64,000 bases of DNA from contig MFLT01000001.1 in NCBI GenBank assembly GCA_001781415.1, positions 51,600 to 115,599 of the forward strand, given 5' to 3'. The DNA is from Candidatus Kaiserbacteria bacterium RIFCSPLOWO2_01_FULL_45_25. Lineage in GTDB: Bacteria; Patescibacteriota; Minisyncoccia; Phycocordibacterales; UBA918. Under the pieces are notes generated by a model. The model had not been told where the DNA came from, made no database searches, and saw only the letters and a program-made list of their open reading frames with translations. A program made the translations under genes and the position numbers. Below, piece after piece: positions 6,572 through 47,134 of this stretch. How positions within the stretch are numbered: position 1 is the stretch's first letter; each line of letters begins with the position of its first letter.

Positions 6572-6705
6572 ATCACCTTAGGTGGTGGTTTTCCGAGTAC
6601 GAGGCAGGCTGCTGCAGCCGACCGCTCCCTTTGGGGTCGCGGCTCGGCTAAGCATCTGCCAAAGCAAAGCATAGTCGACACTTCGTGTCTCTTTGCTTAT
6701 GCTTT
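6572..6705 (+). ncRNA. Candidate structured RNA or cis-regulatory element, copy 1 (homologous to 46443-46610)
   Basis: About 78% identity to the second copy over about 100 nt; compensatory changes in two predicted stems (AGCCGA/TCGGCT vs AGCTGA/TCAGCT; GACAC..GTGTC vs GACGC..GCGTC); inner GC hairpin CCGACCGCTCCCTTTGGGGTCGCGGCTCGG. Confidence 0.45.
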
Positions 6706-7124
6706 ATACTACATATATACTCATGAAATCATCGCTATCCACTTTTGTTACCAAACTTCAGAATAATCCCTGGTATGCCGCTACGATGGTGGTCCTCGCT
6801 TTTGTCGGGGCTGGACTCTTGGGGTATGAGTTCACCGCGTACGCTAGGCCGGAAATTGTCGTGATTACCGTTCGTCTCGACATATTTATCGCTTGTATCT
6901 TCATGACTGATTTCTTCCTTGGGTTATTTTTTAATACTAAGTACACCAAAGCTGACTACTGGAAGAAAAACTGGCTCGACTTCATTTCTTCTATTCCAGT
7001 GACGGCCGACATGGCTCGAGCTCTGCGTATCTTGCGTGCCTTACGTGCGCTGCGCGTTATCTCATCCACGCTTGATGTGTACTTCACACGACGCAGGTAT
7101 TTGAGTATTAAAAGTAAAAAATAA
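6693..7124 (+). CDS. Voltage-sensor-domain-only ion transport family protein (S1-S4, no pore domain); real start possibly the Met at 6723
   Basis: Four TM helices; fourth helix with a regularly spaced Arg ladder RALRILRALRALRVIS (S4-like); stop followed by a terminator, no S5-S6 coding downstream. Confidence 0.5.
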   Translation: MLMLYTTYILMKSSLSTFVTKLQNNPWYAATMVVLAFVGAGLLGYEFTAYARPEIVVITVRLDIFIACIFMTDFFLGLFFNTKYTKADYWKKNWLDFISSIPVTADMARALRILRALRALRVISSTLDVYFTRRRYLSIKSKK

Positions 7125-7132
7125 GTTCATCG

Positions 7133-7154
7133 GCCACCGCTGGTGGCCTTTTTT
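7133..7154 (+). terminator. Rho-independent terminator after the ion-transport gene
   Basis: GGCCACCGCTGGTGGCC hairpin plus TTTTTT. Confidence 0.7.
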
Positions 7155-7182
7155 GACACCCCTGTTGGCTGCACAGTATAAT
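7153..7182 (+). promoter_or_regulatory. Sigma70-type promoter for groES-groEL (TTGACA-N18-TATAAT)
   Basis: Consensus -35 at 7153-7158 and -10 at 7177-7182; no CIRCE inverted repeat visible. Confidence 0.55.
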
Positions 7183-9268: not shown

Positions 9269-9336
9269 AACCCGCTCTAAACCCTAGCTACTTTGTTGCT
9301 TCCTGCACTAAAACATTCATCGTATACAAATACGCC

Positions 9337-9377
9337 TCATGTTTTCGTTCAGTCGCGCCTCGTATCTAGAGGTTTAT
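9337..9377. repeat. 41-bp conserved motif, copy 1 (TCATGTTTTCGTTCAGTCGCGCCTCGTATCTAGAGGTTTAT), second copy at 40544-40584
   Basis: 33 of 37 core positions identical between copies; both lie about 80-120 bp upstream of a TGTGATATAAT extended -10 element. Confidence 0.5.
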
Positions 9378-13185: not shown

Positions 13186-13272
13186 GGAGGGGTGGCAGAG
13201 TGGTTGAACGCGCTACCTTGGAAAGGTAGTATATGCGAAAGCGTATCGGGAGTTCGAATCTCCCTCCCTCCG
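13186..13272 (+). tRNA. tRNA-Ser (anticodon GGA), type II with long variable arm
   Basis: Acceptor GGAGGGG/TCCCTCC, anticodon stem CTACC/GGTAG with loop TTGGAAA (GGA), variable arm TATATGCGAAAGCGTATC, T-arm GGGAGTTCGAATCTCCC. Confidence 0.8.
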
Positions 13273-23322: not shown

Positions 23323-23904
23323 ATGGACAATACAGAGTTCCAACTCAGTGATGAAGAAATAGTGGCTATGACTCTCCGTGAGCATAGCTCATTTGGTTTT
23401 ATTATTGAGCGCTATGAAGCCAAACTAAAGCGATACATTGGTCGACTTGGTGTGCGTAACTATGATGATCAAGCTGATGTCTTGCAGGAGATTTTTATTA
23501 AAGCCTACAAGAATTTAAACAGCTTTGATACCTCACTATCCTTTTCATCGTGGATTTATCGCATCGCCCACAATGAGGCGATTAGTTGGTACCGCAAACA
23601 CAATGTTCGTCCCGAAGGTCACCTTATAGCTGATGGTGAAGAAGTGTTGGCTCTCCTCAAGAGTAAAGAAGAGGGGGTCGAAGCAGCTTATGATAAAGAG
23701 GTAAACGCTGAGGAACTCGGGCGAGCCATGGAGGAAATTGATGAAAAGTACCGTGAGGTGCTGATTTTGCGGTATTTTGAACACAAAGAATACGAGGAAA
23801 TATCAGATATTTTGAAGATTCCAACTGGTTCGGTCGGAACCCTTATTTCCCGCGGCAAGAAACAGCTTTATAATGTACTAAACCAAAACGCCCTACGTAT
23901 ATAA
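23323..23904 (+). CDS. RNA polymerase sigma factor, sigma-70 family (ECF-like)
   Basis: Region 2 and region 4 helix-turn-helix features, 193 aa. Confidence 0.7.
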   Translation: MDNTEFQLSDEEIVAMTLREHSSFGFIIERYEAKLKRYIGRLGVRNYDDQADVLQEIFIKAYKNLNSFDTSLSFSSWIYRIAHNEAISWYRKHNVRPEGHLIADGEEVLALLKSKEEGVEAAYDKEVNAEELGRAMEEIDEKYREVLILRYFEHKEYEEISDILKIPTGSVGTLISRGKKQLYNVLNQNALRI

Positions 23905-23909
23905 CAGAT

Positions 23910-24773
23910 ATGGAAACATCACAGACAAACCAGCCAGATTTAAAGAATCAAATTCTGAGTAGAATTGAGAAGGATGCACTCTGTCCAGACTCCAGGCTCA
24001 TAATAAGTAGTAAGGAATACGCTATGTGGGGGCTGTGGTTTTTGACCGTTCTCCTCGGCGCTCTGTCTGTAGCGGTGACACTCTTTGTGCTGATGCATCG
24101 CCAGTATTCGTTCTATCAGGTCACACATACATCGTTTTTAACCTTTATGGTTGATGTCTTGCCATATCTGTGGATCGCTATGTTTTCTGTCATGGTCATC
24201 TTTGCGGTGTATAACTTTCGGCATACCAAACACGGCTATCGCTATCCGTTATGGAAGATTCTTGGTAGTAGTGTGATTTTGAGCTTGGCCGGCGGGGCTT
24301 TGCTGCACTTAGGTGGAGTTGGGTTTAGTCTAGACAGAACCATCGGTAATTTTTCTAAAGAATATACCTCACAAGAGAAGTTAGAGATGCGTTTCTGGCA
24401 AAACCCAGAAGAAGGTCGGCTGGTCGGTGTATTTCTGGGTGCTGAAGACGGCGTTCCGTTACCACTAGTGGTCCTTGAGGATGCGCGCGGTACTCGCTGG
24501 GAGATGAATGTTGCTGAATTAAATGATGTTGATATCAGAATAATTGAAAGTGGTAAGCGGGTGCGAGTGCTTGGTGTACTTGAAAATGCTTTACCAGCTC
24601 AGTTTTATGCTTGCGCCGTCTTTCCATGGATTTATGAACAGAGGTATTCAATGCACGAGCTCGGTGAAATGAAGCGGTCTATGCAGGAACGTATTTTGCG
24701 ACATACGCAGGCTTTACCTGGAGTGGTGGAAGAAGGAAAGTGCAGTCACTTGGTACTTAAAGGTGCGTTTTAA
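23910..24773 (+). CDS. Membrane protein downstream of the sigma factor; possible anti-sigma factor (by position only)
   Basis: Short cytoplasmic N-terminus, 3-4 TM helices, C-terminal soluble domain; starts 6 nt after the sigma gene. Confidence 0.3.
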   Translation: METSQTNQPDLKNQILSRIEKDALCPDSRLIISSKEYAMWGLWFLTVLLGALSVAVTLFVLMHRQYSFYQVTHTSFLTFMVDVLPYLWIAMFSVMVIFAVYNFRHTKHGYRYPLWKILGSSVILSLAGGALLHLGGVGFSLDRTIGNFSKEYTSQEKLEMRFWQNPEEGRLVGVFLGAEDGVPLPLVVLEDARGTRWEMNVAELNDVDIRIIESGKRVRVLGVLENALPAQFYACAVFPWIYEQRYSMHELGEMKRSMQERILRHTQALPGVVEEGKCSHLVLKGAF

Positions 24774-36061: not shown

Positions 36062-39000
36062 GTGTTATCATATTTTGTATATTCATTAATTTTCCGCACC
36101 ATGTCTCACACGTTTCATGTAAAAGTTTTAATACAGGTCGTTTTTGTTTTACTTGCCTTTGTAAGTTTTCTTTTTATCAATACTAAGGATGTTTTTGCTT
36201 CTGCAACATCTACACCACGTCTGGAGCAACTCGTTAAAGATACTCAAAATACCCTATATACTGGGCAGAGACAACATCTCTCATGCGATGACCTGAGTGG
36301 ACACATTGAGTCAGTGACTATTTCTATGGCTAATATCTATCCGAATACAGACGGACAATATCGGATGAGTGTTCTTGGAGGTGTTGGTCCTACCCGCATA
36401 AGTGAAAACATAGTTGTTTTGGATGGAGATGACTATAGCGTTCAGCGAGACGTGACATTCACTTTCAATCCGGCCATTGATGTTGACACTGATCTGTGTG
36501 CCAATGGTGGGACAGTGAGGTTTGAACTCGTGAATTTGAGCCTATCAGGGGCAATTGTTTTTGGCTCGGCTGCAGACACATACCCAGGCGGTTTTTTCTC
36601 AAAGGGTTCAATCACACCAAAAATTGCCGATATGTATTTCATTATTAACGGAAATGCAGAGGTGAATCATCTACCTGTTCTGAATGAAGTTGGAGACAAG
36701 GCTGCTACTGAAGGATCGTTACTAACTTTCAGTTTGAGCGCGACGGATCAAGATCAGTTTGCAAAGCCAACATACAGTGTCACTGGACTTCCAGAGCACG
36801 CAGTCTTTATTGGTGATACCTTTTATTGGGTGCCTGGATTTGATCAGGCTGGCAGTTATTCAATTGAACTAAAAGCAACGGACGCTGGAAATGCTGGTAT
36901 GCCATCTGAATTTGACACAGAGACCATATCTATAATTGTTTCTGAAGCAACACCAGAACTTAATAATCTAAGCCAACTCGTTAAAGATACTCAAAGTCTC
37001 TTATACACTAACCTAAGACAATCTCTCTCGTGCGATGACTTGAGTGGACATATTGAGTCGTTGACTATTTCTATGGCTAATAACTCTACGGTAACGGATG
37101 GACGATATCAAATGCAAGTTTCTGGAGGTATTGGTCCTATTTATGTTAGTGAAAACATAGTTGTTTTGGATACAGATGAGTATAACGTTCAGCAAGATGT
37201 GACGTTTACTTTCAATCCGGCGATTGATGTTGATACAGATTTGTGTGCTGGTGCTGGGACAGTGAGGTTTGGTCTCGTGACTTTAGACACATCAGGGGCA
37301 ATTGTTTTTGGCTCGGCAGCAGACACATACCTGGGTGGCATTGTCTCGCAGAGTGTACAGACACGAAAAATTGCCGATATGTATTTCATTATTAACGGAA
37401 ATGCAGAAGTGAATCATTCTCCTGTTTTGGATGAAGTTGGAGACAAGGCTACTACTGAAGGGTCTTTGTTAACTTTAAAGTTGAGCGCGACGGATCAAGA
37501 TCAGTATGCCAAACCAACATACGGTGTTACCGGACTTCCAGAACATGCAGTCTTCATCGATGATACCTTTTATTGGGTGCCTGGATTTGATCAGGCTGGC
37601 AGTTATTCAATTGAACTAAAAGCAACGGACGCTGGAAACGCTGGCATACCGCCTGAATCTGACACGGAGACTATATCCATCACTGTCTCTGAAGCAACAC
37701 CAGAACTAAATAGTCTCAGCCAACTCGTTAAAGATACTAAAACTATCCTATACCCTGGGCAAAGACAATCTCTCTCATGCGATGACCTGAGTGGACATAT
37801 TGAGTCGTTGACTGTTTCTATGGTTAATATCTCTCCGAATACGGACGGACAATATCAGATGAATGTTCTTGGTGGTATTAGTCCTACCTATATTAGTGAA
37901 AACATAGCCGTTTTGGATGCAGATGACTATAACGTTCAGCAAGATGTGACGTTTACTTTCAATCCGGCTATTGATGTTGATACAGATCTTTGCGCCAATG
38001 GTGGGACAGTGAGGTTTTCTCTCGTGAATTTAAGCACAGCAAGTGCAAGTGTTTTTGGCTCGGCGGCAGACACATACCCGGGGGGTATTGTCTCACAGAG
38101 TGTATATCCACTACCAAAAATTGCCGATATGTATTTCATTATTAACGGAAATGCAGTTAGTAACAGTGCCCCTACCTTAACTACTATTGGAAATCAAATA
38201 GGAACAGAAGGAGAAACTCTTCAGTTTACTGTGGTTGGTAACGACATCGATGGTGATGCGCTAACTTATAGTGCTTCTGGAACTCCAACAGGAGCGACGT
38301 TCGATGCAAATACTGGTTTGTTCTCTTGGACTCCCGGATATTCAGATGCTGGAATATATGATGTAACATTTACTGTAACTGAAGATACACCCGAAATGCT
38401 TTCTGCTTCTGAGACTGTTTCTATTGAAGTCCTCAATACAAACCGTGCACCAGTCCTTGAACCAATTGGCAATCAATCAACTGCCGAAAACCAAAACCTC
38501 TCATTCACTATCTCAGCAACCGACCCCGATGGAGACAGTCTCACATACTCCGCAGCAAACCTTCCGTCAGGAGCAACCTTTGACGCACAGACACAGACAT
38601 TTAGCTGGACACCAGGATTCAACGATGCAGGGAACTATAGCGACATTGAATTCACTGTCATAGACAGTGGTAGTCCAATGGAGTTGGATATTGAGCTTAT
38701 TACTATCACAGTGGGCAATGTGAACCGCGCTCCAGTTATCGACAATCCAGGACCGCAAGAAGTCTTGGAAACAGAGACATTGTCATTTAGTGTTTCAGCA
38801 GTTGATCCAGATGGCGATGCTGTTACATATAGCGCAAGTAACACACCGGCAGGAAGTACATTTAGTCCTGCAACTGGAGTATTTTCTTGGACACCTAGTC
38901 TCTCAGATGAGGGTGTCTACATGGTGACTTTTATTGCCAGTGATGACGGGTCACCACAGGAATCAGCAGAACTTACAGTAGTTATCACTGTTGGTGATAA

Positions 39001-39265
39001 CCCAACACCAACTGAACAGGCAGAAGATTTAGTTGAAGATATTGTTGTCTTTGCTTTTCCGGCAAACGTAGAAAACTCTTATTTGGCAAATCTTCATAAG
39101 GTTGAGCAATTTATTCTTGATGGAAAAATTAATGCTGCCTTAAATCAATTAGATGCCTTTGTTAATAAGCTTAATCAAGACTACAATCAGGGTGTTATCA
39201 CTCAACAAGAGTATGATAGTCTTCTTGGTGCAGCCAATAACTTAATCGCAGATTTGCAGAATTAA
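36062..39265 (+). CDS. Large surface protein: three about 249-aa tandem repeats followed by He_PIG/cadherin-like Ig domains and a C-terminal coiled segment
   Basis: N-terminal TM; repeated xPxLExIGNQ..E.Q.LSF.ISA.DPDGD.LTYSA..LP.GATFD...FSWTPG modules. Confidence 0.65.
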   Translation: MLSYFVYSLIFRTMSHTFHVKVLIQVVFVLLAFVSFLFINTKDVFASATSTPRLEQLVKDTQNTLYTGQRQHLSCDDLSGHIESVTISMANIYPNTDGQYRMSVLGGVGPTRISENIVVLDGDDYSVQRDVTFTFNPAIDVDTDLCANGGTVRFELVNLSLSGAIVFGSAADTYPGGFFSKGSITPKIADMYFIINGNAEVNHLPVLNEVGDKAATEGSLLTFSLSATDQDQFAKPTYSVTGLPEHAVFIGDTFYWVPGFDQAGSYSIELKATDAGNAGMPSEFDTETISIIVSEATPELNNLSQLVKDTQSLLYTNLRQSLSCDDLSGHIESLTISMANNSTVTDGRYQMQVSGGIGPIYVSENIVVLDTDEYNVQQDVTFTFNPAIDVDTDLCAGAGTVRFGLVTLDTSGAIVFGSAADTYLGGIVSQSVQTRKIADMYFIINGNAEVNHSPVLDEVGDKATTEGSLLTLKLSATDQDQYAKPTYGVTGLPEHAVFIDDTFYWVPGFDQAGSYSIELKATDAGNAGIPPESDTETISITVSEATPELNSLSQLVKDTKTILYPGQRQSLSCDDLSGHIESLTVSMVNISPNTDGQYQMNVLGGISPTYISENIAVLDADDYNVQQDVTFTFNPAIDVDTDLCANGGTVRFSLVNLSTASASVFGSAADTYPGGIVSQSVYPLPKIADMYFIINGNAVSNSAPTLTTIGNQIGTEGETLQFTVVGNDIDGDALTYSASGTPTGATFDANTGLFSWTPGYSDAGIYDVTFTVTEDTPEMLSASETVSIEVLNTNRAPVLEPIGNQSTAENQNLSFTISATDPDGDSLTYSAANLPSGATFDAQTQTFSWTPGFNDAGNYSDIEFTVIDSGSPMELDIELITITVGNVNRAPVIDNPGPQEVLETETLSFSVSAVDPDGDAVTYSASNTPAGSTFSPATGVFSWTPSLSDEGVYMVTFIASDDGSPQESAELTVVITVGDNPTPTEQAEDLVEDIVVFAFPANVENSYLANLHKVEQFILDGKINAALNQLDAFVNKLNQDYNQGVITQQEYDSLLGAANNLIADLQN
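36200..38150 (+). repeat. Three tandem about 747-bp near-identical coding repeats inside the 36062-39265 gene
   Basis: Repeat starts at about 36200, 36955 and 37690 share long identical stretches (…CAACTCGTTAAAGATACTCAAA…TCATGCGATGACCTGAGTGGACA…); the reverse-strand artefact ORFs MKYISAIFG recur at a 747-750 bp period. Confidence 0.8.
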
Positions 39266-40497: not shown

Positions 40498-40543
40498 AGC
40501 ATATCCACAAACCTCTGAACCCATCTCATATAGAAAAGATGCT

Positions 40544-40584
40544 TCATGTTTTCGTTCGGTCGCGCCTCGTATCTGTGGGTTTGT
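40544..40584. repeat. 41-bp conserved motif, copy 2 (see 9337-9377), upstream of extended -10 TGATATAAT at about 40597-40605
   Basis: TCATGTTTTCGTTCGGTCGCGCCTCGTATCTGTGGGTTTGT. Confidence 0.5.
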
Positions 40585-44526: not shown

Positions 44527-46437
44527 ATGACCATAGTGGCCAAAGCTTGGGCGTTTTTCTTCCTCTGCCTCTCACTGGTGCTTTTGGTGGTGTATCTAAT
44601 TAATCCCTCTACTCTCTTTGCTCGCAATATCACACAGTATAAAGACACTATTTCTGATTCTGCTCCAGAGTTTGCTTCAAACCATACTTTGGCGTTTCGT
44701 TTGGGTACTACTATTTCACCGGGTGCATATATTGAAGTAACGCCACCGACTGGGTTTGAGGTCTTGGGTACAAGTACGTTTGTGGCTGAAAGAAACGTTG
44801 AGTTATACGTGAACGGTGCGCTGCGTGATTCTAGCGACACGCTCTCGGCCAGTACTGACTTGGTAGAAATTTTCCCTGGTACTCCTGGGATGATTCGTTA
44901 CACTTTAAATACTTCTTCGGGAATTGCTGAAGGTGCAAATCTTGAACTACGTATCGGCAACAATACCTCAAAGGCATTAGAGTACAGTGTGGAAGTTAGT
45001 ACTACCACTGGAACCACAACCACTGAAGCTGATATTAAACCAATTATTAACGATACCAGTATCGGCACTAAGGAGGTTTTGGTAGAAATTTATGATGGGG
45101 GACTGGTGGCTGAGGCAGGTTTTTTGATTGCGCTTATTGATCAAGTGAGTGTTGGTCCGGCTGACACTCGTGAAGACATTCCGCCGTACCGTTTTAATGG
45201 TGCACCAAGTAGTACAGTGACGGGTGTGACTCTAAATGTGGAACTATTTCTTGAGACAGATGAATTGGCGGTTTGTAAGTACGATCTGGTAGCAGGAACG
45301 GACTATAATAGTATGCCAAATACCTTCACTGGTACTGGTCTCATTTACCACACGATGGTGGTCGCCGTCACACCAGAAACACAACATACATATTATGTGC
45401 GTTGTGTTGACGATGAAGGAAACTTCAACACAGACGATTACATAATTACCTTTTACGTAAGTGCAGTTCCGACTGGAGAATCAAATACTGACGGAAACGT
45501 TGATGGTGATGGTACTGGATCAGGAAACGAAGGAGGCGGTGATGGTTCTGGCGGTGGCGGAGAAACTGGTTCATCAGACGGTGTAGCACCTACAGAAGGC
45601 GGTACTTCAGGAGGCGGTGGATCAGGTGGGGGAGGCGGCGGTGGATCAGGTGGAGATTCTGGTAGTACCGCTGGTGGTGGATTTGAAACATCCGATGCAC
45701 CGTACCGTAGTGGTGACGCCCGAGTAGTTATTAGTGGTTACGCTTTTCCGGGCAGTACAGTTACTGCCTTAGTTGATGGTAAAAGTGTTACCACCGATAG
45801 AGCTGATAATAGTGGTAACTACTCAGTTACCATAGATGCTATTGCTCGTGGTGTATATACCTTTGGAGTGTATGCCACTGACTCTGCTGGCACCAAGTCA
45901 TCAACCTTCAGTACCTCATTTACTGTTACTGGTGCACGTACTTCAACACTTTCAAACATCAACCTGTCACCGACTGTGAAGGCGACACCAGATCCGGTTA
46001 ATCCTGGGCAATCATTGACTCTAAGTGGTTATGCGTTACCAAACTCAACGGTGACAATTGAAAACGAGAAGGATAAAGTGGCGGCATCAAGACAGAGTTT
46101 CACTGCTACCGCAGCGGGCAATGGCTCATGGTCAATTAATGTACCAACTAGTGGCTTCACTAACGGTACCTACAAAGCTCGTGCCAAATCAGCTCAGACT
46201 GATGGTGCTACTACCAATTTCTCAAACTACACATTATATGGAGTGGGACAGCAGGCCACTAGACCAATTAATGCTGACTTAAATCGCGACAGCAAAGTCA
46301 ATCTTACCGACTTTTCTATTCTTCTATTCTGGTGGAATACCAATGGAGGAACTTCTAATCCATCTGCTGATATAAATTCTGATGGAAAAGTTAATCTGAC
46401 GGACTTTTCTATTTTGTTGTTTAATTGGACTGGGTAA
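44527..46437 (+). CDS. Secreted protein with Gly-rich linker, two Ig-like domains and a C-terminal dockerin module
   Basis: Duplicated Ca-binding segment DLNRDSKVNLTDFSILLF / DINSDGKVNLTDFSILLF at the extreme C-terminus (type I dockerin pattern). Confidence 0.6.
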   Translation: MTIVAKAWAFFFLCLSLVLLVVYLINPSTLFARNITQYKDTISDSAPEFASNHTLAFRLGTTISPGAYIEVTPPTGFEVLGTSTFVAERNVELYVNGALRDSSDTLSASTDLVEIFPGTPGMIRYTLNTSSGIAEGANLELRIGNNTSKALEYSVEVSTTTGTTTTEADIKPIINDTSIGTKEVLVEIYDGGLVAEAGFLIALIDQVSVGPADTREDIPPYRFNGAPSSTVTGVTLNVELFLETDELAVCKYDLVAGTDYNSMPNTFTGTGLIYHTMVVAVTPETQHTYYVRCVDDEGNFNTDDYIITFYVSAVPTGESNTDGNVDGDGTGSGNEGGGDGSGGGGETGSSDGVAPTEGGTSGGGGSGGGGGGGSGGDSGSTAGGGFETSDAPYRSGDARVVISGYAFPGSTVTALVDGKSVTTDRADNSGNYSVTIDAIARGVYTFGVYATDSAGTKSSTFSTSFTVTGARTSTLSNINLSPTVKATPDPVNPGQSLTLSGYALPNSTVTIENEKDKVAASRQSFTATAAGNGSWSINVPTSGFTNGTYKARAKSAQTDGATTNFSNYTLYGVGQQATRPINADLNRDSKVNLTDFSILLFWWNTNGGTSNPSADINSDGKVNLTDFSILLFNWTG

Positions 46438-46442
46438 GAATA

Positions 46443-46610
46443 ATCACCTTGGTGAAGCGGCGGACTCGACGGCGGACCACATACCCTATTTCCTCTTTGC
46501 AGACCTGCTTTCGCAGGCCGCTACAGCTGACCGCTCCCTTGGGGGTCGCGGCTCAGCTAAGCGTCTGCGTAAGTTCGCAATAGTCGACGCGTTGCGTCTC
46601 GTTTGCTCAC
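46443..46610 (+). ncRNA. Candidate structured RNA or cis-regulatory element, copy 2 (see 6572-6705), directly upstream of hsp20
   Basis: Shares the ATCACCTT start, the core GC(A/T)GCAGC(C/T)GACCGCTCCCTT(T)GGGGTCGCGGCTC(G/A)GCTAAGC(A/G)TCTGC and the 3' hairpin with compensatory substitutions. Confidence 0.45.
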
Positions 46611-46663
46611 TTGTGTGGGTAACATACACAAATGTAAATTAAACAATACTATAATGTAGTGGT

Positions 46664-47134
46664 ATGTCCTTTCTACAAAGACTAAAAAATCGAGGAGTCC
46701 GTTCCGGGCAAACTTCCTTGCAGTCTGAATCCGAGGAGACAGCTGTCGACAAAGTCGCACAGCTGAATGTTGATGTCTATCAGACTGAAAACAAAATTGT
46801 TATTTACGCCCAGGCCGCTGGAGCTGACATGAACGACGTCAATGTCTCGATTGAAGGCGATGCGGACATTGTACTTATTGAAGGGCGACGGATTCGTCCT
46901 GAGTATATTGTATTTCCTAAGAGTAAAGAACAAGGTGCTTACTTCGCATCTGAATGTATTTGGGGAGATTTTTATCGACGAATTATTTTGCCTGAAAGTG
47001 TAGAGATAGAAAAGGCTGAAGCAAAAATTAAAAACGGCGTACTGATTTTGGTTCTTCCTCTACTCAAATCTTCAGAGAAAGAAAAAGTACGTTTGCGAGT
47101 AAAGCAGGAGCGTCGTCAACCAAGTAGTAAATAA
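46664..47134 (+). CDS. Small heat-shock protein (Hsp20/alpha-crystallin family)
   Basis: Alpha-crystallin domain pattern (..DVYQTENKIVIYA..GV.ILVLP), 156 aa. Confidence 0.8.
   Translation: MSFLQRLKNRGVRSGQTSLQSESEETAVDKVAQLNVDVYQTENKIVIYAQAAGADMNDVNVSIEGDADIVLIEGRRIRPEYIVFPKSKEQGAYFASECIWGDFYRRIILPESVEIEKAEAKIKNGVLILVLPLLKSSEKEKVRLRVKQERRQPSSK

Follow-up and report, generated by a model that had tools for sequence, protein, structure and literature searches.

A covarying two-hairpin element in intergenic DNA of a Candidatus Kaiserbacteria genome and its relatives

Two diverged copies of one element, built of two hairpins in series, lie in intergenic DNA of Candidatus Kaiserbacteria bacterium RIFCSPLOWO2_01_FULL_45_25, within a 64,000-nucleotide stretch of contig MFLT01000001.1 that we refer to as the window. 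The element is structured, and its stems are maintained by compensatory change. It belongs to a family that is new to Rfam and that in kind resembles the REP/BIME, BOX, and attC-like structured repeats. Tentatively, at slightly short of an even chance, we read it as a clade-specific (Paceibacteria/Parcubacteria), modular, non-autonomous structured repeat that spreads by tandem duplication and occasional insertion.

Architecture of the two copies in the window

Copy A (6572-6705) and copy B (46443-46610) had been recognized from the letters alone as diverged versions of one element, and their positions, their shared core, and a repeat alignment all confirmed this. Both begin with ATCACCTT, found at 6572 and at 46443. 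The 26-nt core GACCGCTCCCTTNGGGGTCGCGGCTC occurs exactly twice in the 64 kb, with 0 occurrences expected in shuffles, and its pattern was matched in 0 of 100 shuffled sequences. A repeat finder aligned 6604-6694 with 46513-46603 at 79% identity over 91 nt. The extra length of copy B is an additional 5' segment, the orphan half-hairpin at 46471-46495, a decayed fragment whose 3' partner strand is missing.

The two pairing-preserving stem changes quoted in the initial annotation are real. One exchanges AGCCGA/TCGGCT for AGCTGA/TCAGCT, and the other, in the apical stem, GACAC-ttc-GTGTC for GACGC-gtt-GCGTC; two more were found between the copies (GGCAGG/UCUGCC to CGCAGG/UCUGCG and UGCU/AGCA to CGCU/AGCG). 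The comparison thus yields four both-sided base-pair differences, with pairing kept in all of them. The minimum free energy fold of copy A (6572-6712) has -63.3 kcal/mol and a z-score of -6.0 against shuffles; for the 112-nt core, the z-scores are -6.9 (A) and -4.4 (B). Model R1 of the unit matched copy A at 6599-6710 with 117 bits and copy B at 46508-46618 with 118.6 bits.

The unit of ~110 nt consists of a bulged 23-bp hairpin (HP1, 58 nt) followed in series by a 14-bp hairpin (HP2, ~42 nt), and the two have no sequence relation to each other. In HP1, the 23 bp are distributed over five short helices with fixed bulges between them, above the basal pairs CGCAGG/UCUGCG, and the apex is conserved in sequence as C-UCCC-UNNG-GGGG-UCG. 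HP2 has the basal pairs AAGUU/ACUU and a basal stem in two covarying variants, a (AAGUUCGCAA/UUUGCUCACUU) and b (AAGCAAAACA/UGUUUCUGCUU). Its 5-bp apex can be described as "barcoded": a conserved G-C/C-G frame, whose first and last pairs are fixed or nearly so, encloses three freely varying pairs that differ in almost every copy. Small open reading frames (ORFs) running through the units were considered and rejected, since stops interrupt the frames and the substitutions come in pairs. Features of the two copies and their surroundings are collected in Table 1.

Table 1. Features of the element and its flanks; coordinates refer to the window unless a contig is named, and L numbers denote contigs compared with it
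Feature	Coordinates	Strand	Basis
Copy A, short 5' stem-loop AUCACC-UUAGGU-GGUGGU	6572-6589	+	MFE fold; sequence not conserved in units of other genomes
Copy A, HP1 with conserved bulges and apical motif CUCCC-UNNG-GGGGUCG	6603-6660	+	Fold, covariation, R1 match
Copy A, HP2 variant b, basal AAAGCAAAGCA/UGCUUAUGCUUU, apical GACAC-UUC-GUGUC	6661-6705	+	Fold, RNAalifold, module scan
TGGACTGGGTAA, final codons (W-T-G-stop) of dockerin-domain gene (Pfam Dockerin_1)	46426-46437	+	ORF, Pfam, junction table
Copy B, short 5' stem-loop UCACC-UU-GGUGA	46443-46455	+	Read from sequence
Copy B, orphan 5' half of type-2 HP1, GGCGGACCACATACCCTATTTCCTC	46471-46495	+	Comparison with intact type-2 units (L010 2659-2767, L025 7179-7284)
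Copy B, HP1	46512-46569	+	Fold, covariation, R1 match
Copy B, HP2 variant a, apical GACGC-GUU-GCGUC	46571-46612	+	Module scan, RNAalifold, fold
TGTGGGTAAC, conserved hsp20-upstream motif; right-hand boundary of the variable array site, outside the element	46614-46623	+	Present in genomes with and without the element
hsp20 -10 box TATAAT, 8 nt 5' of ATG 46664	46650-46655	+	Sequence; conserved in relatives
Family-2 units with GGA loops	L023 3945-4145; L025 6767-7043; L056 12248-12356; L010 2783-2892		

A second, unrelated conserved intergenic string, CATGTTTTCGTTCRGTCGCGCCTCGTATCT, also occurs in the window, at 9328-9375 and 40535-40582 (85% identical). Of the two, one is placed between groEL and its terminator, and the other just upstream of a GTGATATAAT promoter. 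A similar string in L025 (~6590-6550, minus strand) precedes a gene; the string could be another small structured or regulatory element.

Covariation and turnover in relatives

Relatives were found through identical Hsp20 and VSD proteins, through Hsp20 and RNase R homologues, and by a pattern scan of metagenomes. Related copies were present in L010, L012, L023, L024, L025, L047, and L060, and a sister family with an equal two-hairpin plan (family 2) was present in L010, L023, L025, L045, L056, and L060. The element is not confined to the genome of the window. Names carried by relatives of its proteins point to Candidatus Paceibacterota/Parcubacteria.

Covariation in these sequences bore out the proposal of selection on secondary structure. 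In the 11-sequence alignment, 95.0% of pair cells are paired, against 31-39% with slid partners, and 17 of 28 pairs show both-sided changes, a count reached in 0 of 500 shuffles. These figures are somewhat inflated, as the alignment was fitted to the model, but a set of nine hand-collected sequences aligned with MAFFT only agrees (94.7% of pair cells paired; both-sided changes in 13 of 28 pairs), as does RNAalifold, which recovered both hairpins without guidance and counted 22 compensatory pairs out of 37. Family 2 has compensatory changes at 15 of 29 pairs (six sequences). Against the 17 of 28 pairs that vary on both sides, variation is wholly or nearly absent from the bulges, the internal loops, and several pairs. 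The constancy of the bulges and apex shows that a specific fold is required, whether it is upheld by selection or by replacement.

The absence of the element from known RNA families, suspected by eye in the initial annotation, held against Rfam 15: neither copy gave a match even at E ≤ 10, none reached the gathering threshold for the element in the window, and the L023 and L025 arrays returned noise only. Elsewhere in the window, Rfam matched only a tRNA of 87 nt (13186-13272) that carries an insertion in the region of its variable arm. A scan of genome contigs with GACCGCTCCCNNNNGGGGTCGCGG gave chance matches in high-GC genomes only, with similarity limited to the pattern, and a degenerate 3'-strand pattern recovered three loci only in the metagenome scan. 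Pattern scans of viral contigs gave no match, and neither did BLAST of copy B against E. coli genomes (including rRNA), phages, and plasmids. A likeness of HP2 to the 23S GCGUAAUAGCUCACUGG region was dropped because of this last result. No description of the element was found in the literature searched.

The apical loops of family 2 are purine-rich and contain GGA or GGGA (UAGGAAAGG, UUAAGGAAAAA, and UUAGGGAAU), whereas type-1 loops lack GGA. The family-2 loops are reminiscent of CsrA-type binding loops or Shine-Dalgarno mimics; CsrA-type sponges, which they suggested, were set aside in view of the type-1 loops.

The content of the hsp20 locus differs from one relative to the next. No recognizable unit is present there in L026, L034, L035, L044, or L050; the dockerin-domain gene is separated from hsp20 by 51 nt in L026 and 71 nt in L044, and by short unrelated sequence in L034 and L035. 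One to two units occupy the locus in the window, L012, L045, and L047, three to four in L010, and several in L060. In L025, an array of ~1.4 kb follows the orthologous dockerin-domain gene, though the gene after it is an unannotated ORF of another kind. Array content differed among all the genomes compared (window, L010, L012, L025, L045, L047, and L060), and no two arrays are colinear, even those of L010 and L012, whose hsp20 genes are 79% identical at four-fold sites. Other loci are occupied as well. The family lies downstream of rnr in L023, where it ends at the stop of a convergent SMC-like gene, and after the rnr terminator in L056, and a copy in L024 sits between two terminators on a contig of 51% GC with unrelated genes. 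Copy B is 89% identical to this L024 copy from a different locus but only 73% and 68% identical to the same-locus units of L012 and L047, respectively. No unit was seen in the ~20-kb flanks of several relatives. In L019, a contig of the same species that encodes an identical VSD protein, copy A is missing upstream of the gene; the flanks there are 97-99% identical to those of the window, and ~170 nt of intergenic DNA are replaced at the copy-A site. Global alignment did not support a decayed remnant of copy A there.

The string TGGACNGGNTA(A/G)G recurs at every internal junction of the hsp20 locus; it encodes the terminal W-T-G-stop of the upstream gene, and 12-20 nt of that gene's end are re-duplicated there. 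Units at other loci lack the junction motif. The arrays therefore grow locally, by tandem duplications that take in the end of the gene. Target-site duplication and an att core were both rejected as explanations of the junction motif TGGACNGGNTAAG, as it corresponds to the upstream gene end (NWTG-stop) and is absent at other loci. Two pairs of exact adjacent duplicate units occur in L023. In L025 (7277-7178, minus strand), a complete 100-nt type-2 unit lies inside the apical loop of an otherwise intact HP1, with no flanking duplication, and in L060 an intact family-2 unit is inverted. HP1 and HP2 variants occur in differing combinations, for example in L060.

Two further structures were noted beside the arrays. 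In L025 (~7650-7520, minus strand), a type-2 hairpin is interrupted by an unrelated insertion of ~135 nt with bounding inverted repeats (CTGCCAAAG...CTTGGCAG), a small element of another kind, which shows that the arrays accumulate insertions. Contig L057 starts just upstream of hsp20 with a perfect palindrome at 1-48 (ATCCGCCAAGGACCATCCTTGGCA/TGCCAAGGATGGTCCTTGGCGGAT). It is a palindromic element with the CCGCCAAGG/CCTTGGCGG motif of type-2 units, or else the assembly folded back there at a repeat.

At four-fold sites of hsp20, the window is 54% identical to L010, 51% to L012, and 29% to L047. With hairpins intact throughout, this low identity means that either purifying selection or continual replacement by fresh copies would maintain the units, and the turnover favors replacement as the probable course. 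The Hsp20 protein itself is 100% identical in the window (46664-47134), L010, and L012 (3001-3471), with DNA 87-88% identical, in a look-up that returns identical proteins only; this points to what may be extreme purifying selection.

Readings of the element

As a modular repeat, the element multiplies in intergenic DNA by tandem duplication, a step shown by the duplicated gene ends at junctions and the identical adjacent L023 units. Now and then units also insert or relocate whole, as the nested unit, the inverted unit, and the copies at unrelated loci show, and afterwards they decay into fragments. The folded single strand would be needed for propagation or persistence, which we propose as the reason why stems covary while bulges stay fixed, and a putative hairpin-recognizing factor may act in trans on single-stranded DNA or on a transcript. 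Beyond tandem duplication, the mechanism of propagation is one that we infer. The orphan half-hairpin in copy B, the exact duplicates, the nested and inverted units, and the empty sites speak for this repeat origin. Counting against it are the low copy number (two in the 64-kb window of a 965-kb scaffold) and the persistence at the hsp20 locus despite 29-54% four-fold identity, with conserved bulges and apex, as a functional RNA would show likewise. Nearly all units found, by model match or by eye, follow the orientation of the flanking genes, with the inverted L060 unit as the one clear exception.

Features of classical transposition were absent from the units. We saw neither terminal inverted repeats nor target-site duplications, and the unit ends are not inverted repeats of each other. 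The family therefore does not have the form of a classical miniature inverted-repeat transposable element (MITE), the junction direct repeat being specific to the hsp20 locus. Nor does it have that of a miniature IS200/IS605 element, as HP1 and HP2 are unrelated rather than similar sub-terminal palindromes. The left flanks of independent copies differ (...GTAAG, ...GAAGT, and ...GCTC), with no fixed IS200/IS605 target. Pfam scans covering 35 of the 42 window ORFs of at least 150 aa, nine of them without a match, revealed no transposase, recombinase, or integrase domain; the seven ORFs left out include those of 1385 and 1067 aa. The 1067-aa ORF (36062-39265) contains three tandem 747-nt repeats (36227-38020) that are 80-87% identical, indicating a probable repeat-domain surface protein. 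An ECF-type sigma factor (Sigma70_r2 and r4_2) at 23323-24773 is followed by a 287-aa ORF without Pfam match, possibly its anti-sigma factor.

Among known repeats, REP/BIME elements share with the family intergenic hairpin units, compensating stem changes, a theme of insertion into hairpin loops, and mosaic clusters that vary between strains, as the clusters do here. REPs, however, are 35-40 nt long, occur in hundreds of copies that bear a GTAG on their 5' side and take alternating orientations within BIMEs, and are accompanied by a RAYT gene, whereas the unit described here has ~110 nt and two unrelated hairpins and occupies few loci in almost always one orientation. No GTAG lies 5' of either hairpin, and no RAYT gene was seen in the 64-kb window. 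The BOX elements of Streptococcus pneumoniae are likewise modular (boxA-boxB(n)-boxC, 100-200 nt, with variable module number), stably folded, intergenic near promoters, and without a transposase of their own. They differ in exceeding 100 copies per genome, in having an unrelated sequence, and in pairing their end modules together, where the present unit has two independent serial hairpins.

Integron attC sites and clusters of attC sites lacking integron-integrases (CALIN) resemble the family in forming same-direction arrays of imperfect hairpins with Watson-Crick stems, in which structure and extra-helical bases are conserved beyond sequence. Conserved structure and extra-helical bases with free sequence were also found here. 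The family differs in that RYYYAAC/GTTRRRY core sites are missing, its hairpins are not separated by ORF cassettes, and an integrase was not seen; its junction repeat is a duplicated gene end rather than a recombination core. Sites that work as folded single-stranded DNA, such as attC and the IS608 ends, have Watson-Crick-only stems and conserved extra-helical bases. In the 11-sequence alignment, G.U makes up ~3% of pair cells, changed cells are one-sided in 5 cases against 51 two-sided, and many swaps are transversions, a pattern that may point to folded single-stranded DNA.

That the units are instead a true small non-coding RNA family, whether of "sibling" sRNAs or of a protein-binding RNA, is a serious if somewhat unlikely rival reading. 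The unit or array would be transcribed, the HP1 bulges and the CUCCC/GGGGUCG apex would bind a protein or target, HP2 would end or stabilize the RNA, and the arrays would be duplicated sRNA genes. Strong covariation together with conserved unpaired positions agrees with such a role, as do retention in lineages with near-saturated synonymous divergence, the stand-alone L024 copy between terminators, and the shared orientation of almost all units and their neighboring genes. Plus-strand pairs include 13 G.U against 4 A.C (loop-closing pair excluded), a weak indication because most of the G.U pairs are one inherited pair. Set against this, there are few G.U pairs overall, and for L047 and L024 the minus strand has the better fold by ~9 kcal/mol, both strands folding equally well for A, B, and L012; the strand indicators, pair counts and folding energies, disagree.

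Transcription signals may also weigh against an sRNA. No canonical promoter was seen 5' of the units, although real promoters here are near-consensus: a consensus scan found no plus-strand sigma-70-type promoter 5' of either window copy, and units elsewhere were inspected by eye. Only weak, A/T-rich -10-like strings follow the junction motif, and junctions as sigma-70 or ECF promoters were rejected for want of a consistent -10. Some L023 units lie <20 nt apart, and no U-run follows HP2. The HP2 apex of copy A with TCTTTGCTTA was flagged as terminator-like, no such site was flagged in copy B, and some family-2 units end in a hairpin with UUUUU. Array content turns over between close relatives and includes fragments and nested and inverted copies. 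Sibling sRNAs (LhrC1-4, OmrA/B, and PrrF1/2) are comparable as structured units of ~100 nt with head-to-tail duplication and strain-variable copy number, but each of their genes has a recognizable promoter, an intrinsic terminator, and a fixed locus. Here neither signal is evident, and units are nested, inverted, and fragmentary.

A cis-acting, REP-like element of 3' UTRs or intercistronic RNA, serving as a block to 3'-to-5' exonuclease, a processing site, or a read-through insulator, is clearly unlikely. Units are very stable (-40 to -56 kcal/mol each), lie downstream of a co-oriented gene in L023, L056, and L024, and at the hsp20 locus start right after the stop of the co-oriented gene with no terminator between. 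Yet copy A has no co-oriented upstream gene (secG is divergent), a terminator-like hairpin with T-run, identified by eye, separates the upstream gene from the element in L023, L056, and L024, conserved bulges and an apical motif would be superfluous in a simple barrier, and relatives manage without the element. Neither this barrier role nor an sRNA family would be mutually exclusive with a repeat origin.

The initial annotation had proposed a 5'-UTR cis-regulatory RNA, a thermometer or riboswitch, for the VSD-only ion channel gene and hsp20. Both copies do end shortly upstream of plus-strand start codons, copy A 18 nt before ATG 6723 and copy B about 52-54 nt before ATG 46664, one of the genes being a small heat-shock gene and the other being followed by groES/groEL. 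Hairpins 5' of an hsp20-family gene also recall the ROSE and fourU thermometers; those, however, lie inside the 5' UTR and pair with the Shine-Dalgarno sequence or AUG. We consider such a function very remote. The hsp20 -10 box lies between the element and the ATG, which, judged from the promoter sequence, places the element outside the hsp20 leader. Its position relative to the ATG is conserved in L026, L034, L035, L044, L045, L047, L050, and L060, including five relatives free of the element (L026, L034, L035, L044, and L050). The last hairpin contains neither the Shine-Dalgarno sequence nor the start codon, VSD and hsp20 orthologues of close relatives lack the element, units also occur at unrelated loci, one of them facing a convergent gene, and there is no Rfam match.

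We infer from the promoter position that the hsp20 mRNA is leaderless or nearly so. A -10 box ~8-13 nt from the start codon with no Shine-Dalgarno sequence was seen for hsp20 (46650-46663) and probably for the VSD-only gene (6705-6722), which suggests that leaderless or near-leaderless mRNAs may occur in this organism. The VSD gene carries its own terminator: at 7132-7182, a strong terminator (GGCCACC-gct-GGTGGCC with T6) is directly followed by a perfect TTGACA-18-TATAAT groES promoter, and then by a leader of ~94 nt. With this terminator and promoter ahead of groES, groESL is not linked to copy A. Any effects on the VSD-only channel gene and hsp20 would be incidental, with the element upstream of their promoters and probably no dedicated regulator of either, and it should not be annotated as an hsp20 thermometer.

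That the copies resemble each other by chance, or come from a recent plain duplication of DNA free of structural constraint, would fit a window with two copies only but is already refuted by the shuffles, by an identity whose differences are concentrated in compensating pairs, and by covariation that holds in 11 sequences from seven sources (the window and six other contigs).

Implications for small bacterial genomes

Genomes of Paceibacteria and other Candidate Phyla Radiation (CPR) bacteria measure ~1 Mb, and very little of this is non-coding. A covarying two-hairpin element with arrays of up to ~1.4 kb in such genomes must act or propagate efficiently. To our knowledge, almost no non-coding RNAs have been characterized in this phylum, and if the element is an RNA, it would be a new and well-supported structured RNA class there. 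If it is a mobile structured repeat, it would offer a handle on movement in organisms without a transposase seen nearby. Because arrays differ in every genome examined, the family would also be a useful strain-level marker.

A bolder form of the repeat reading is a long shot: a new hairpin-guided mobile cassette, or a self-propagating structured RNA, of CPR bacteria. A putative enzyme would recognize HP1 with its bulges and HP2 with its barcode, place complete units in single-stranded loops, and assemble arrays at favored intergenic positions. If true, this would be an integron- or REP-like system with an architecture of its own, in genomes believed to contain hardly any mobile DNA.
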